A program made the translations under genes and the position numbers. The notes below the pieces were generated by a model that made no database searches, was not told the DNA's origin, and worked only from the letters and a program-made list of their open reading frames with translations. From assembly GCA_963785725.1 (NCBI GenBank), contig CAWAWS010000005.1:224001-288000 (forward strand): DNA of 64,000 nt, given 5' to 3'. Position 1 is the stretch's first letter; every line of letters begins with the position of its first letter. The stretch is from an uncultured delta proteobacterium (GTDB lineage Bacteria; Myxococcota_A; Polyangia; Palsa-1104). Positions 11,236-21,040 of this stretch are shown here, one piece after another.

Positions 11236-11688
11236 TTACTTGAGCGTGACGTCGAGCATCGCGACGCGGCGCGCGTGCCGGCCGCCTTCGAACGGCGTCT
11301 CCAGCCACACGCGCAACGACTCCTCGGCCACCGCGGCGCCGATGAGCCGCTCGCCGAAGCAGATGACGTTGGCGTCGTTGTGCTGCCGGGAGAGCCGCGC
11401 CGCCGTCGGCTCGGAGACGAGCGCCGCGCGCACGCCGGCGACTTTGTTGGCCGCGATCGAAATGCCGATGCCCGAGCCGCACACGCAGACGCCGCGCGCG
11501 TCGCCGCCGAGCTGCACGACGCGCTCACCGACGGCGCGGCCATATTCGGGATAGTCGACCGACGCCGTCGAGTGCGCGCCGACGTCTTCGACGTTGTGGC
11601 CCCACGCGGTCAGCTTGTCGGCGAGCAGCGACTTCAAATTGTAGCCCGCGTGATCGGAGCCGATCACGACCGTCAACGGCTTTTGCAA
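11236..11688 (-). CDS. rpiB: Ribose-5-phosphate isomerase B
   Basis: GSDHAG, DYPEY, CGSGIG, SRQHNDANV, FEGGRHARRV. Confidence 0.93.
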   Translation of the reverse strand: MQKPLTVVIGSDHAGYNLKSLLADKLTAWGHNVEDVGAHSTASVDYPEYGRAVGERVVQLGGDARGVCVCGSGIGISIAANKVAGVRAALVSEPTAARLSRQHNDANVICFGERLIGAAVAEESLRVWLETPFEGGRHARRVAMLDVTLK

Positions 11689-11691
11689 ACG

Positions 11692-12940
<1,249 letters not shown>

Positions 12941-12975
12941 GTTTGGCCTTCAGCGACTACCTGAAGCCGCTTTGC

Positions 12976-13211
12976 TTAGGGGTTGGCGTGCGCTTTGATG
13001 TACTCGATCGCGTCCTTGACCGTCTTGATCTGCTCGGTGTCCTCGTCGGGAATCTCGATCGAGAACGCCTCTTCGAGCGCCAGCACCAGCTCGACGACGG
13101 CGAGCGAGTCGGCCTTGAGATCGTCGGTGAACGACGCCTCGGGCTTGACCTGCTCGGGGCTCACTTCGAGCTGCGCGCAGATGATCTCTTTACCTTCTGC
13201 TCGACGTTCAT
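12976..13211 (-). CDS. acpP: Acyl carrier protein, frameshift near 13190
   Basis: AGGAG SD then ATG AAC GTC GAG CAG AAG (MNVEQK); EIICAQL...[21 protein letters not shown]. Confidence 0.92.
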
Positions 13212-13262
13212 CTCATTCTCCTGTGAGCTTCTGATCGCGACTTCGGCTGGCTGGAAAGCGTT

Positions 13263-14005
13263 TTACATCAAAAGTCCGCCGTTGACGCGCACAACTTGTC
13301 CGGTGACGTAGGAAGCCGCCTCGGAGACGAGGAAGCGCACGGCGTCGCGCGACGTCTTCGGCCGAGCCGATGCGTCCGAGCGGGATCTGCTTGACGAGCG
13401 CGTCGCGCGCGTCGCCTTGCACGTGCTCGGCCGTCATGTCGGTCTCGATGAAGCCGGGCGTGACGCAGTTGACGGTGATCGCGCGCGACGCGAGCTCGCG
13501 CGCCAGCGACTGGGTCATGCCGATGAGGCCGGCCTTGGCCGCCGCGTAGGAGACCTGGCCGCCGTTGCCCTGCTCGCCGACGACGGACGAGATGTTGACG
13601 ATGCGGCCGGCCGGCGACTTCAAGAGGTAGCGCGACGCGGCCTTGCAGCAGTGGAACGCGCCCGACAGGTTGACGTCGAGCGTGCGCTGCCAGTCTTCGC
13701 GTCTTGGTGCGCAGGAGCAGGCCGTCGATGGCGATGCCGGCGTTGTTGACGACGACGTCGAGCCGACCGCGCTCTTGCGCGAGCTGCTTTACCGCGGCGT
13801 CGACCGCGTCGGCGTCGGCGACGTCGAAGCGCGAGAGCGCGCCGTCGCCGCCGGCGTCTTCGATCGCCTGCAGCGTCTCGGCCGCGGCCGCTTCGTTGGC
13901 GGTGTAGTTGACGATGACGAAGAGCCCGTCCTGACCGAGCGCGATGGCGATGGCGCGGCCGATGCCCCGCGATGCGCCGGTGACGAGCGCGACGCGCTTA
14001 TCCAT
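13263..14005 (-). CDS. fabG: 3-oxoacyl-ACP reductase, frameshifts near 13700 and 13350
   Basis: VTGASRGIG, NNAGI, YAAAK, C-terminus VTGQVVRVNGGLLM. Confidence 0.92.
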
Positions 14006-14893
14006 TGTTCGCAACTCCTTGCAGCGGCTGCAGCTTCACGGCCGGCGCGATGCGCTTGACGAGACCGGCCAGCACCGCGCCCGGCCCCACTTCGTAGGCT
14101 TCGTCGACGCCGAGCGCGGCGAGCTTTTGCACCGACTCTTCCCAGCGCACGCTGCCCGTCACTTGGCGATGCAGCAGATCCTTGACCCGCGCCGCGTCGC
14201 TGTTCGGCTCCGCCGTCACGTTGGCGACGACGGGAATCTTCAGCGGCGCCACCTTGACGCGCTCGAGCTCGGCGCGCAGCCGCTCGGCCGCCGGCGCCAT
14301 CAGCGCCGAATGGAACGGCGCCGACACCGGCAGCGCCTTGACCAGCTTGGCGCCCTTTTGCTTCGCCAGCGCCATCGCGCGCTCGACCGCCGCTTTGTGG
14401 CCGGCGACGACGACCTGCCCGGCGCCGTTGAAGTTCGCCGGCTGACAGGCTCTCGCTCTCGTCCGGCGACGCTTCGCGGCAGGTGTCGCCGACCGTCGAC
14501 GCGTCGAGCCCGATGATCGCCGCCATCGCGCCCACGCCTTCGGGCACCGCCTCCTGCATGAACTTGCCGCGCAGGTGAACGAGCCGCACGGCGTCCGCGA
14601 ACGTCAGCGCGCCGGCATAGACCAGCGCCGAATATTCGCCGAGCGAATGGCCGGCCGCGATGTCGGCCTCGATGCCGCGCTCGCGCAGCTGATCGGCCCA
14701 CGCGATCGACACCGTCAGAATCGCCGGCTGCGTGTTCTGCGTGCGCATGAGCTCGCCGTCGGGCCCTTCGGCGATGATCTTCGACAGCGCAAAGCCGAGC
14801 GCCTCGTCGGCCTCGGCGAAGCGCGCGCGCGGCAAGGCCCGCGTCCATGCCGACCTTCTGCGAGCCCTGCCCGGGAAACAGGAACGCGCGCAT
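13998..14893 (-). CDS. fabD: Malonyl-CoA:ACP transacylase, frameshifts near 14840 and 14445
   Basis: FLFPGQGSQ, TQPAIL, GHSLGEY, VSAPFHS, EVGPG. Confidence 0.93.
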
Positions 14894-14929
14894 CACCGCG
14901 CTCCGCGCGTTGACGCGCAAACCAACGAT

Positions 14930-14981
14930 CCGCCGGCCCTACGGGCCTGGCTCACTTCGCTTCGCTTCGCTCCGCTCATCG
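14930..14981. repeat. Short intergenic REP-like element (small hairpin plus CTTCG pentamer repeats)
   Basis: ccggccctacgggcctgg followed by cttcg cttcg cttcg ctccg between fabH and fabD. Confidence 0.5.
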
Positions 14982-14982
14982 C

Positions 14983-15968
14983 CTAGAACCGCACCAGCGC
15001 CGAGCCCCACGACAGGCCGGCGCCGAGCGCGGCCATGAGGATGAGGTCGTTCGGCTTGACGCGCCCTTCGCGCGCCGCCTCGTCGAGCGCGATCGGAATC
15101 GAGGCCGACGACGTATTGCCGTACTTATGGATGTTCAAATAGAAGCGATCGAGGCCGATGCCGACGCGCTCGGACACGCCTTCGAGGATGCGAATGTTCG
15201 CCTGATGCGCGACGACGACGTCGACGTCCGCCGCCGTCTTGCCGTTGTGCTCGAGCGCCGTCTTGGCCGCGGCCGAGATGTTCTTGACCGCGTGCGTGAA
15301 CACCGACTTGCCCTGCATCTGCACGAGATGGCGCTTGGCCTCGACCGACTTGAGCGACGTCGGCTCCAGCGATCCGCCGCCGGGGATGTTGAGGAACGGC
15401 ACGCCCGCGCCGTCGGCGAAGAGGTGCGTCGACTGGATGCCGCGCTCGTCCGTCGACGGGACCGAGCAGCGCCGCGCCGGCGCCGTCGCCGAAGAGCACG
15501 CAGGTGTTGCGATCGGTCCAGTCGACGCAGGCGCGACAGGATCTCGACGCCGATGACGAGCACGTTCTTGAACTGCCCCGAGCGAATGAAGGCGTCGCCG
15601 ATGGACAGGCCGTAGATGAAGCCGGCGCAGGCGGCCGAGATGTCGAACGCGGCCGAGCCCGGACGCGCGCCCAGCTTCTGCTGCACGGTGACGGCGACGG
15701 CCGGCATCGGCATGTCGGGGCTGATGGTGCCGACGATGATGCAGTCGATCTGGCTCGGATCGATCTCGGCCGTCTCGCAGGCGCGCCGGCCGGCGTCCGC
15801 CGCCAGATCCGACGTCGAGCGGCCCTCTTCGAGGATGCGCCGCGCGCCGATGCCGGTGCGCTCGCGAATCCACGAGTCGGAGGTCTCGACCAGCTTCGAG
15901 AGGTCGTCGTTGGTCAACACCTTGTCCGGCACAGCCTTGCCCGTGCCTGCGATGCGCGCTCTCAACAT
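14983..15968 (-). CDS. fabH: 3-oxoacyl-ACP synthase III, frameshifts near 15530 and 15470
   Basis: WIRERTGI, AACAGF, LFGDGAGA, HQANIRI, GNTSSAS. Confidence 0.93.
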
Positions 15969-16013
15969 GCGTTCAATCCTCGGTTCGAATGATTCCGCGA
16001 AAACATGGTCGCT

Positions 16014-17864: not shown

Positions 17865-17892
17865 AATATAGTCGGAACGGCCTGGAAGTCAA
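17865..17892 (-). promoter_or_regulatory. Sigma70-type promoter of the yceD-rpmF-plsX-fab operon
   Basis: TTGACT-16 nt-TATATT. Confidence 0.7.
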
Positions 17893-17979: not shown

Positions 17980-19287
17980 CTAAGGCGTCAGCCGCGTGAG
18001 GTCGCGCGGAAAGAGCACGGCCTCACGAATATTGCCGAGGCCGGTCAGCTGCATCAGGAAGCGCTCGAGGCCGATGGCGAAACCGCCGTGCGGCGGCATG
18101 CCGTGCTTGAAGACCTCGAGATAGGCCGCCAAGGGCTCGCTCGCCATCCCGCGCGCCGCCAGCGCCGCCAAGTAGTCGGCGTGGCGATGCAGCCGCTGCC
18201 CGCCGGTGACCAGCTCGGTGCCGCGAAAGAGCAAGTCGAACGAGCGCGAATACGCGGGCCGCGCCGGGTCGGGATGGGTATAGAACGGCCGCTTGTGCAG
18301 CGGATAGCCGACGACGAAGAGCCACTCGCTGCCGTGCTCCTCGGCGGCCCAGCGGCCGAGCCAGCGCTCGCCCTCGGGCGACAGGTCGGGCTGGCCGCGC
18401 TCGTGCTCACCGAGCGCGCCGGCGATCCGCTCCTGCGCTTCGGCGAAATGGATCTCGGGCACGCGCTCGGGCAGCTCGGGCAGACGCGTCGCGAGCAGCG
18501 CCAGCTCGACGGCGCAGCTCGCCGCAAGCTCGGCCAGCATCGCGCGCAAGGTCCGAGTGAGCTCGCGCATGACGTCGGCGTGGCTCTCGATGAAGCCGAG
18601 CTCGACGTCGAGGCTGGTGTACTGGTTGATGTGGCGCACGGTGTCGTGCGGCTCGGCGCGGAAGACCGGGCCGACTTCGTAGACCCGCTCGAAGACGCCG
18701 ACCATGATCTGCTTGTAGAGCTGCGGGCTCTGCGCCAAGTACGCTTCCTGCTTGAAGTAGCGCACGGCGAAGACGTTGGCGCCGCCTTCGGTGGCGCCGG
18801 CGACGAGCTTGGGCGACTGGATCTCGGTGAAGCCGCGCGCGTCCAGCGAGCCGCGAAAGGCGCGCATCGCCGCCGCGCCGAGCCGGAAGATGGCGCGCCG
18901 GGTCGGATGACGATTGGCGACGACGGCGTGGTCGAGCAGCGCCGGCAGCTGCGCGCGCAGCGCCTTCTTGCCGAGCACGATCGGCGTCGGCTCCGTCACC
19001 GGCGCCAGCAGACGCAGCGTGATGCCGTGCAGCTCGACGCCACCCGGCGCCTGCGCCTCGGCGACGACGTCACCTTCGAGCTCGACGACCGACTCGGCGA
19101 GCGCGCCGGCCGCGCGCAGCGGCTCGAGCCGCGCCTCGTCGGTGACGACGGCCTGCACGAGGCCCCAGCCGTCGCGAATGACGAGGAAGGTTAGACCGCT
19201 GAGCCGACGCTGCGCATGCAGCCAGCCGGCGATGCGAACCCGCGCGCCAATATGCGCGGCTACTTCAACCGAACGAACACGTTCCAT
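17980..19287 (-). CDS. aspS: Archaeal-type, probably non-discriminating aspartyl-tRNA synthetase
   Basis: 435 aa with no bacterial insertion domain; QAPGGVE loop, LAQSPQLYKQ, FRAE, GGQRLH, PPHGGFAIGLER. Confidence 0.88.
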   Translation of the reverse strand: MERVRSVEVAAHIGARVRIAGWLHAQRRLSGLTFLVIRDGWGLVQAVVTDEARLEPLRAAGALAESVVELEGDVVAEAQAPGGVELHGITLRLLAPVTEPTPIVLGKKALRAQLPALLDHAVVANRHPTRRAIFRLGAAAMRAFRGSLDARGFTEIQSPKLVAGATEGGANVFAVRYFKQEAYLAQSPQLYKQIMVGVFERVYEVGPVFRAEPHDTVRHINQYTSLDVELGFIESHADVMRELTRTLRAMLAELAASCAVELALLATRLPELPERVPEIHFAEAQERIAGALGEHERGQPDLSPEGERWLGRWAAEEHGSEWLFVVGYPLHKRPFYTHPDPARPAYSRSFDLLFRGTELVTGGQRLHRHADYLAALAARGMASEPLAAYLEVFKHGMPPHGGFAIGLERFLMQLTGLGNIREAVLFPRDLTRLTP

Positions 19288-19303
19288 CGGACGCCCCTTT
19301 GGT

Positions 19304-19351
19304 GCTGGCCCTGCCGTGTGGACGCGGAAGCGCGCCTGCGGCAGGCCCAGC
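19304..19351 (-). promoter_or_regulatory. GC-rich hairpin in the aspS leader (candidate attenuator element)
   Basis: GCTGGGCCTGCCG...CGGCAGGGCCAGC pairs at 12 of 13 positions, with inner GGCGCG-CTTC-CGCGTC stem; just before the AAAGGGG SD. Confidence 0.7.
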
Positions 19352-19357
19352 GGCCCG

Positions 19358-19399
19358 TCAGGCGTCTTCCCGCGGATCGTCTCCGTCGATGGTGTTCAT
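19358..19399 (-). CDS. Putative Asp/Asn-rich leader peptide MNTIDGDDPREDA
   Basis: ATG AAC ACC ATC GAC GGA GAC GAT CCG CGG GAA GAC GCC TGA; TTGACT -35 at 19437-19432. Confidence 0.6.
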   Translation of the reverse strand: MNTIDGDDPREDA

Positions 19400-19468
19400 G
19401 ACGCCCTTAGTGGAGCGTGTCGCGCGCGCGAAGTCAAGGCGCGCCGAGCCAACGCGTGAGCGAGATCG

Positions 19469-21040
19469 CTATTTGCCGGCCGAGCCGAGCAGCGCGGCGC
19501 CGCCGATGGTCAAGAGCGCGCGAATGTCGTCGTCGTTGAACGTGAGCTGCGCGCCGAAGAAGTAGTCGCGCCCGGTCGAGACGCCGGCGCCGGGGCCGCG
19601 GCCGTTCAAGACGTCGTCGATGCCGCCGACGAGCCAGATGTGCCGATAGAACTCGAGCGCCGCCATGATCTTCAAGCGCGGGTAGATGTTCGTCGTGAAG
19701 TCGAAGAGGTCGAGGTTGAGCGACACCGAGCGAAACGACGCCCGCGTGACCGACAGCGGCAGATCGACGTCGGCGCCGATGCCGCCGGTCGACTCCTTGA
19801 TGCCGAAGCGGCCGGTCAAGATGACGCGACCGTCGAGCAGGAAGAAGCGCTTGGCGAGCTGAAAGCTGAAGCGGAAGCGATCGGTGGTCGTGATCGTGTT
19901 GGTGACCGTCGTCTGCGGCTTCGAGGGATCGTCGGTGGTGACGTAGCTCGTGCTGTTGCTCGAGTAGCCGCGCGGATCGTCGACGAGCTCGATGAGGAAG
20001 TACTTGTCGGGCCGCGACATCAGCTTGACCGAGACGTACGTCTTCAACGAGTTGGCGAGGACGTTGTACTCCGAGCGCAGGCCGATGAGCGTCTGCAAGC
20101 GCGTGATCGAACGGATGAATCCGCCCGCGTCCTCGGTGATCTGCTCGACGTTGTTGGCGATGGTGTCGTCGTTCAAGAGGCGGCCGACGGTGCCCTCGCC
20201 CGCTTTGACCTTGTCGGTCATCGTCGACATGTTCTCGAGCGTGTGGTTCAAGTTGTCGACGGCGGAGCCGATCTTGTCGAGATCCTGGCGCAGCTTGTCG
20301 CCGGTCGAGTTCATCTGCGTGTCGCCGTTGCCGACGAGCGCTTTGACGCTCTCGGTGATGTCGCGGATGTTCGACAGCGACTTCTTGATGTCCGCCGACG
20401 CCTGACCGGCGGTCATGCCTTTGACGTCGAGCGCGATCGAGTCGACGTGCTTCAACAGCTGCTCCGCCGCCGCCGAGTTCTTGTCGACGGCGCCTTGCAC
20501 GCTCTTGGCGATGTCCTGCAGCGGCCCTTGCGTCAGCTTGTGCACGTCCTGAAGGATCGAGCGCAAGACCGGCAAGGTCTCGTTCACCTGCACCAAGATA
20601 TCGCTCGTCGACACCGCTTCGACGACGTTGGGAATCTGATCCCCGTCGCGCAGGAGGTTGTTCTTCTTCATCAGCCCGGTGACCGGATCGGGCGACTCCG
20701 ACGTGCCGGGATCGATCTCGAGGTAGAACTCGCCCAGCAGCGACGCCGTCTTCTTGAAGACCGTGGCGTTGGACCAGATCTGCGTGTTGGGGATGACGCG
20801 GATCGTGATCTTGGCGAACGAGCCTTCCAAGCGGCGGTCGACGATCTCGCCGACGTTGAGGCCGGCGATCTGCACGCGCGACTTGTCGACGAGGCCGGTG
20901 GCGTCATGGAAGATGCACCAGACGCGATAGCCCTTGTTGCCGGAGATGCCTTTGGCGACGAAGCGAAAGCCGACGAAGCCCAAGATCGCGATCAACATCA
21001 CGGTGAGGCCGACCTTGATGGCCGCGGCGGTCGGCTTCAT
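19469..21040 (-). CDS. mlaD: MCE/MlaD family protein with long helical region and C-terminal beta-rich domain
   Basis: N-terminal TM; FHDATGLVDKSRVQIAGLNVGEI and LLGEFYLEIDPG MCE motifs; follows mlaE and mlaF. Confidence 0.85.
   Translation of the reverse strand: MKPTAAAIKVGLTVMLIAILGFVGFRFVAKGISGNKGYRVWCIFHDATGLVDKSRVQIAGLNVGEIVDRRLEGSFAKITIRVIPNTQIWSNATVFKKTASLLGEFYLEIDPGTSESPDPVTGLMKKNNLLRDGDQIPNVVEAVSTSDILVQVNETLPVLRSILQDVHKLTQGPLQDIAKSVQGAVDKNSAAAEQLLKHVDSIALDVKGMTAGQASADIKKSLSNIRDITESVKALVGNGDTQMNSTGDKLRQDLDKIGSAVDNLNHTLENMSTMTDKVKAGEGTVGRLLNDDTIANNVEQITEDAGGFIRSITRLQTLIGLRSEYNVLANSLKTYVSVKLMSRPDKYFLIELVDDPRGYSSNSTSYVTTDDPSKPQTTVTNTITTTDRFRFSFQLAKRFFLLDGRVILTGRFGIKESTGGIGADVDLPLSVTRASFRSVSLNLDLFDFTTNIYPRLKIMAALEFYRHIWLVGGIDDVLNGRGPGAGVSTGRDYFFGAQLTFNDDDIRALLTIGGAALLGSAGK

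Follow-up and report, generated by a model that had tools for sequence, protein, structure and literature searches.

How might a bacterium adjust the production of a synthetase that is predicted to serve two tRNAs, when the DNA in front of its gene carries a short open reading frame rich in codons for the same two amino acids? This question is raised by the window studied here, a stretch of 64,000 nucleotides from an uncultured delta proteobacterium, in which an initial annotation, made from the sequence alone, had proposed an Asp/Asn-rich leader peptide with alternative RNA structures upstream of an archaeal-type aspartyl-tRNA synthetase (AspRS) gene, here called aspS2. We consider it quite likely that this leader combines a sensor, read by the ribosome, with a switch between two RNA helices, and we discuss below what supports this view and how the switch might reach the synthetase.

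The aspS2 gene and its upstream open reading frame

The identification of the gene as an archaeal-type AspRS held, the protein exceeding the cut-offs of two family models (PRK05159, 522 against 353; TIGR00458 aspS_nondisc, 381.7 against 368.4), and it is this family assignment that predicts charging of both tRNA-Asp and tRNA-Asn. Among the named relatives of aspS2, records from Haliangiales and Kofleriaceae come closest. Because a bacterial-type aspS, asnS and gatB are also present elsewhere in the genome (each in frameshifted pieces, together with an intact rho), aspS2 is, judged by gene content, a second, spare AspRS of its host; a spare AspRS likewise occurs in Thermus and Deinococcus, according to PMC4206432. 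The frameshifts in the bacterial-type aspS, asnS and gatB are probably assembly errors. The genes fabF, fabG, fabD and fabH (window 11500-15970) are split by frameshifts in the same way, aspS2 itself being intact, and this number of split housekeeping genes suggests an error-prone assembly. Downstream of aspS2, a good sigma-70-type promoter (TTGACT-16-TATATT, window 17865-17892, minus strand) stands ahead of a yceD-like gene, so the genes that follow aspS2 probably have a promoter of their own.

Table 1. Features of the aspS2 leader in the window, with the loci in Deinococcota that carry a different uORF
Feature	Position	Strand	Basis or remark
-35-like hexamer TTGACT	19432..19437	(-)	TTGAC spacing kept in the near clade
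Weak -10-like hexamer TCCACT	19409..19414	(-)	9 nt 5' of the uORF ATG
uORF MNTIDGDDPREDA with its stop	19358..19399	(-)	In-frame conservation across 45 elements
Asp7-Asp8 codons GAC GAU	19376..19381	(-)	Candidate sensor codon: GAU, conserved
Segment A2, 3' end of the uORF	19359..19374	(-)	Partner is C or the SD region
Segment B, 5' arm of the long hairpin	19339..19351	(-)	Covariation, folding
Segment C, interior of the hairpin	19323..19338	(-)	Complementary to A2
Segment D, 3' arm of the long hairpin	19304..19316	(-)	No U-tract after D
Segment E, aspS SD region and start codon	19285..19300	(-)	Pairs with the uORF in the minimum free energy fold
aspS2, 435-aa archaeal-type (non-discriminating family) AspRS	17980..19287	(-)	Family models
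Asn/Asp-uORF loci of Thermus/Meiothermus/Deinococcus/Trueperaceae			L073, L079, L082, L084, L087-L098, L101, L104-L107, L109

The upstream open reading frame (uORF), MNTIDGDDPREDA, lies where the annotation had placed it, running from an ATG at 19399 to a TGA at 19360-19358; it has 13 codons, four of them for Asp and one for Asn, and a spacer of 70 nt separates it from the aspS2 ATG at 19287. In a chance control, 268 of 1657 proxy genes of the genome had a short upstream ORF beginning with ATG, and two of these 268, the aspS2 uORF being one, reached at least five or at least 38% Asp plus Asn, a threshold derived from the aspS2 uORF itself. A second Asp/Asn-rich short uORF, near 105331 (+) on host contig C7, stands before a short-chain-dehydrogenase-like gene, probably by chance. 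The TTGACT that had been read as a -35 hexamer was located at 19437-19432, and no consensus promoter passed in a scan of 19000-20200: the -10 candidate at 17-nt spacing, TCCACT, is without the usual A at position 2 and fails the consensus scan, and homologs show TAnnnN at this place. Among the 14 elements of the near clade the distance from TTGAC to the uORF ATG is exactly 38 nt in 12 and 36 nt in one, TTGAC being absent from the last; such a spacing implies a predicted 5' UTR of a few nucleotides and a near-leaderless start of the uORF in this clade. An SD-like 4-mer precedes the uORF in all 31 elements outside the near clade and in four of the 14 inside it.

The distribution of aspS2 is patchy near the host, with 16 carriers among 401 genomes of the same class (the host and one unpublished genome included) and four among 401 genomes of the phylum sample, and most genomes of the class that includes Dictyobacter carry the gene (113 of 151, unpublished ones included). 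An Asp-rich uORF, which the annotation had expected in relatives, is clearly conserved in the aligned upstream regions, and it is present in all 15 published genomes among the 16 same-class carriers. From Ktedonobacteria, 30 of the 113 loci were fetched, of which 19 have the element, two are read-through variants, eight have no element and one is cut by a contig end. Our analysis thus concerns 45 elements, 22 of them myxobacteria-type or myxobacteria-like and 23 from Ktedonobacteria, with two loci identical to others counted once; the eight loci without an element, the one cut by a contig end, the two read-through variants and L234-L236 stand outside this set. A covariance model built from 15 myxobacteria-type sequences (R1) matched 19 of the 151 Ktedonobacteria-class genomes, and the 18 published matches all lie directly before an aspS2 sequence, which in one case is a fragment of the gene. 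Six elements that have diverged (L198-L203) escaped R1, as did three loci, L234-L236, where the leaders are shorter, the uORFs contain Asp runs and a single hairpin extends to the SD. In the two read-through variants, L212 and L222, an Asp-rich uORF without an early stop continues out of frame for 160 and 80 nt into aspS, which is either natural variation or assembly error. The R1 search did not find the element in 12 related genomes without aspS2; within the host genome, the candidates for further copies were weak matches (best E 0.036), and the two inspected resemble chance matches. The leader stays with aspS2 although the upstream neighbour gene varies (window, L002, L003, L111), and the tree of aspS2 is compatible with one origin, for which we claim no donor. 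On these comparative grounds, we take it to be a real, conserved regulatory leader.

The candidate sensor within the uORF is a single codon. The codon immediately 5' of segment A2 (Table 1) is Asp or Asn in all 45 elements and ends in U in 41 (GAU 32, AAU 9), its position, three codons ahead of a conserved Glu/Gly, having been placed by hand in 31 of the 45. Among the Asp codons of the aspS genes themselves, by comparison, GAU accounts for 47/317 and 97/345. In 11 extra elements found with the model the codon is Asp or Asn in all and U-ending in eight, counted by eye and with a model that favours such codons. The remainder of the peptide is less constant: the uORFs hold 2-10 Asp plus Asn (median 4 in the 45 elements), the position of Asp12 is Asp in eight of 45, and the C-terminal residues differ (ERT, EDA, EGV, GRA, KRA) while the pairing of the RNA is maintained.

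Crossing helices in the leader

The structures described in the initial annotation were all recovered. The hairpin ahead of the SD (19351-19304) folds at -36.9 kcal/mol (z -3.52, equalled by none of 200 shuffles), and the alternative fold, in which the uORF end (19374-19359) is complementary to the hairpin interior (19338-19323), reaches -34.3 kcal/mol (z -2.54, equalled by two of 200 shuffles). The whole leader folds at -62.5 kcal/mol (z -4.39, none of 200 shuffles equal), and its minimum free energy structure contains both contacts proposed for the ribosome-binding site (RBS), namely GACGCCU (19366-19360) with GGGCGUC (19296-19290) at the SD and, from 19392-19385, CCAUCG:CGAUGG over the aspS start codon.

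Two helices of this leader cross and covary, A2:C, which joins the uORF end to the hairpin loop, and B:D, the stem of the hairpin. Across 15 sequences 88.8% of the cells were paired, with 14 both-side changes, against none of 500 shuffles and 31-50% in slid controls; these counts are inflated by the relatedness of the sequences, just as the element counts overstate independence. When 43 rows were aligned by fitting to B:D only, nine antisense matches having been removed ahead of the covariation scan, three A2:C pairs nevertheless stood among the top covarying columns (column pairs include GC22/AU12/GU6 and CG38/UA3/UG1). In the B and D arms the sequence itself is conserved, beyond the pairing. 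Since the helices cross and both are longer than one turn, A2:C and B:D are probably mutually exclusive alternatives, with A2:C excluding the downstream hairpin by taking its interior, not its 5' arm. Folding of successive transcript prefixes made A2:C the dominant fold of the growing RNA for a median of 23 nt, in 45 of 45 elements.

A2:C is better conserved than the pairing between the leader and the SD, and SD sequestration is the weakest part of our account, moderately supported by the folding models. In a duplex test, five of the 22 myxobacteria-type and five of the 23 Ktedonobacteria elements paired with the SD better than 95% of shuffles, and in the window 63 of 100 shuffles were as good; in a whole-fold test against uORF shuffles, 13 of 22 and 12 of 23 lay beyond them, the window stood at 1/20, and in six of 45 the RBS was more open with the uORF than with its shuffled versions. 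In many elements the hairpin itself reaches over the SD or the start. In L041, L115, L198, L200 and L202, C itself seems to pair with the SD and a modelled ribosome at the stop closes the RBS, a pattern that corresponds to classical anti-anti-SD logic.

The hairpin is not followed by a U-tract, as had been noted, and a scan of 19000-20200 returned no intrinsic terminator. Between loop and start, 38 of the 45 elements have no 8-nt window with 5 U, and in the other seven the U runs, inspected by eye, fall mostly between SD and start. The Rfam search that the annotation had suggested gave no match for the leader, neither at gathering score in the window (at E<=10, 19150-19600 gave three matches, weak and unrelated) nor for the element in 16 related loci.

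A sensor of another kind is attached to the same gene family. A T-box motif precedes aspS2 in 56 other loci, and in 21 of the 23 Ktedonobacteria elements it lies directly upstream of the uORF element, in tandem. With a T-box model, seven of eight loci tested matched at E<=3e-8 with 50-88 bits, below the Rfam gathering score of 93. The specifier pattern parsed 12 of about 80 loci, 10 of which have GAC in the specifier region. In L204-L209, L211, L220, L226, L228 and others, the motif is found 100-400 nt upstream of aspS2 and, with its U-tract terminator, is directly followed by the uORF element. The window gave no match to a T-box (Stem I with specifier, UGGN antiterminator).

Stalled ribosomes and rival explanations

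According to the initial annotation, stalling at Asp codons would free the aspS ribosome-binding site, and it had suggested refolding the leader with ribosome-masked segments. We modelled a ribosome that covers the mRNA up to 6 nt beyond the A-site codon, a reach assumed on the basis of established footprints. Stalling this ribosome at the conserved codon left the equilibrium median for the cost of opening the RBS where it was (14.0 vs 14.1 kcal/mol without a stall in the 22 myxobacteria-type elements, 10.2 vs 10.5 in the 23 Ktedonobacteria elements), with an opening of more than 2 kcal/mol only in 7/22 and 6/23. For the window, opening the SD costs 10.0-11.6 kcal/mol with Asp7 or Asp8 in the A site vs 9.6 without a ribosome, and only a stall at codons 10-13, Asp12 included, frees it directly (2.0 kcal/mol at Asp12). 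Equilibrium unmasking at Asp7/Asp8 was therefore rejected, the SD cost not being lowered in these folds, and the original proposal survives for Asp12 of the window only. Consequences differ when A2:C is kept trapped during the stall: the median RBS cost then goes from 14.1 to 7.4 kcal/mol in the 22 and from 10.5 to 6.7 in the 23, opening by more than 2 kcal/mol in 19/22 and 14/23. Trapping brings the SD cost for the window down from 9.6 to 4.4 kcal/mol, and that of a wider RBS window only from 14.5 to 13.2. The barrier from A2:C to the hairpin has a median of 18.5 kcal/mol (15.0 in the window; pseudoknotted paths are not counted), and the ON fold lies above equilibrium by a median of 13 kcal/mol, 23 in the window. 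With the modelled ribosome placed at the uORF stop, the RBS opens in 28 of 45 elements (14/22 and 14/23).

Based on these models and on the comparative data, the best explanation, in which our confidence is slightly better than even, would be a terminator-less, kinetic translational attenuator that senses charged tRNA-Asp and tRNA-Asn. During transcription, A2:C would form first, as the folding predicts, holding B in its loop. A ribosome stalled at the GAU or AAU codon would halt just short of A2 and A2:C would survive; with A2:C retained, the long hairpin could not close and the aspS2 RBS would stay open (ON). Translation through to the stop would instead melt A2:C and let B:D close; once the ribosome is released, the uORF end, or the bases past the stop, would pair with the SD and the start codon (OFF), and Rho polarity might follow. 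The 56 loci with a T-box before the gene and the 21 tandems support this direction of induction, in which shortage means ON, and the uORFs of L212 and L222, which cross the aspS start out of frame, fit run-through as OFF. A fuller statement of this trapped attenuator, to which we give as a single joint claim a little less than an even chance, has four parts: the stall would unmask nothing, its effect being to preserve the helix that folds first and whose topology keeps a much more stable hairpin from hiding the RBS; a single GAU/AAU codon, read by wobble and set at a fixed distance, would report on both tRNAs; the cassette would travel with aspS2 between phyla; and in Ktedonobacteria, placed behind an Asp T-box, it would give two tRNA sensors per mRNA.

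The main rival, which we judge unlikely, retains the sensor and the A2:C/B:D switch and makes the output transcriptional, with B:D acting as a pause site or as a U-less terminator dependent on Rho, NusA or NusG. Such an output would agree with the better conservation of B:D and A2:C than of the SD pairing, would require the metastable fold to last for seconds only, and corresponds to the logic of classical attenuation in a genome where rho is present; yet U-tracts are missing (no 5 U per 8 nt in 38 of 45 elements), a leader so short and structured would offer little Rho loading site, and many members have a hairpin that runs on over the SD or start. Rather less probable is the direct unmasking envisaged in the annotation, in which the stalled ribosome covers the anti-SD and the RBS is freed at equilibrium, as in mycobacterial polycysteine leaders. 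This would work for a stall at Asp12 of the window (SD 2.0 vs 9.6 kcal/mol), and L112-L114 and L191-L194 have an SD region whose sequence complements that of the Asp-Asp codons; nevertheless the position of Asp12 is Asp in so few elements (8/45), the equilibrium medians are unmoved by a stall at the conserved codon (more than 2 kcal/mol only in 7/22 and 6/23), and the covarying A2:C helix is left unexplained.

We give very little credence to the idea that the RBS becomes accessible when a ribosome passes the uORF stop or pauses there, by coupling or by a peptide-dependent arrest, with the Asp codons lowering expression or sensing in some other way. The models do allow it (at-stop medians of 10.5 and 6.7 kcal/mol, and 1.1 for the SD of the window), but from general knowledge the direction would be wrong for a synthetase and for a tandem T-box, the C-terminal residues vary while the pairing is maintained, and the two variants L212 and L222 have no early stop. 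Equally improbable is an RNA that binds a protein, as proposed for the LEU element or as in an AspRS autoregulation, translation of the uORF being incidental. In its favour, the B and D arms are conserved in sequence, and changes of the Leu codons are without effect on LEU-element regulation, on evidence cited in PMC1262725; against this, an open frame with its start, stop and SD-like signal is retained across phyla, Asp and Asn codons swap at one position, and every uORF keeps 2-10 of them.

Relation to known leaders

The kinetic attenuator that we favour has relatives among known systems, each alike in part. In E. coli, pheM-pheST is a classical leader-peptide attenuator of a synthetase gene, and the Lyubetsky group has reportedly made comparative surveys of attenuation. 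Classical attenuators end in an intrinsic terminator, of which there is none here, and in Ktedonobacteria the T-box and the leader stand in tandem. What is shared with them is that cognate codons sense charged tRNA and that T-box and leader interchange on one gene family, swaps of this kind and the Bacillus hisS leader being treated in PMC2965389; a Shewanella aspS leader is labelled merely 'tRNA synthetase leader' in PMC2659441.

The nearest precedent for the gene itself is Deide_10019 of D. deserti, a 14-residue Asn/Asp-rich putative leader peptide of a non-discriminating AspRS (PMC4007540, Table S9; De Groot et al.), whose leaderless start was mapped by RNA-seq and which was proposed, as a prediction, to act by transcription attenuation. 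It resembles our case in its Asn/Asp-rich uORF before the same gene family and in its start, leaderless there and, as the promoter spacing suggests, near-leaderless here. Short Asn/Asp uORFs precede aspS2 in Thermus, Meiothermus, Deinococcus and Trueperaceae (Table 1), mostly followed by a U-tract hairpin, several of those in Thermus having no clear U-tract. This Deinococcota uORF is a different one, mostly with hairpin and U-tract and matched by R1 in none of five loci tested, whereas the element described here has no U-tract and has crossing helices.

In mechanism, the mycobacterial Ms5788A polycysteine leaderless sORF (10.1101/834739) is similar in being a short ORF, leaderless there and putatively nearly so here, with cognate codons, and in having a long duplex that hides the downstream SD without a terminator, an arrangement which was reporter-tested there and is proposed here from sequence and models. 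In Ms5788A, however, the codon tract pairs with the SD and a stall unmasks it directly, whereas the conserved sensor codon of our leader is, in most members, located 5' of the anti-SD and would need the second helix, A2:C. The closest architecture, and it is by architecture only that we compare them, is the LEU element of actinobacterial leuA (PMC1262725), with its cognate-codon uORF, a base stem that includes the SD, no terminator and two crossing helices or an alternative hairpin; it differs in its Leu codons, its gene and its occurrence in Actinobacteria, and its authors favoured protein binding. As understood here, the aspS2 leader would in its working be a uORF-based attenuator outside the classical terminator family.

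In the literature covered, mostly outside the subscription journals, we found no published description of the aspS2 leader element, myxobacteria included. The annotation's remark that no Asp leader of this kind was described in myxobacteria thus stands for that group, but a predicted Asn/Asp leader of a non-discriminating aspS in D. deserti is in print (PMC4007540). The novelty lies in an architecture that dispenses with a terminator, in its range and in its tandem with the T-box; the idea of Asn/Asp sensing had already appeared as a prediction, and within the literature covered it does so only as an entry in a supplementary table.

These leaders bear on a class of regulators, the amino-acid-sensing leaders without terminators, of which there are few tested examples. 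With at least 45 natural variants and covarying helices, every step can be tested by point mutants. In the tandem of T-box and ribosome-read leader, one transcript would carry a sensor of uncharged tRNA and a sensor of decoding speed and, if our reading is true, a kinetically trapped attenuator would also be a testable model for the LEU element.
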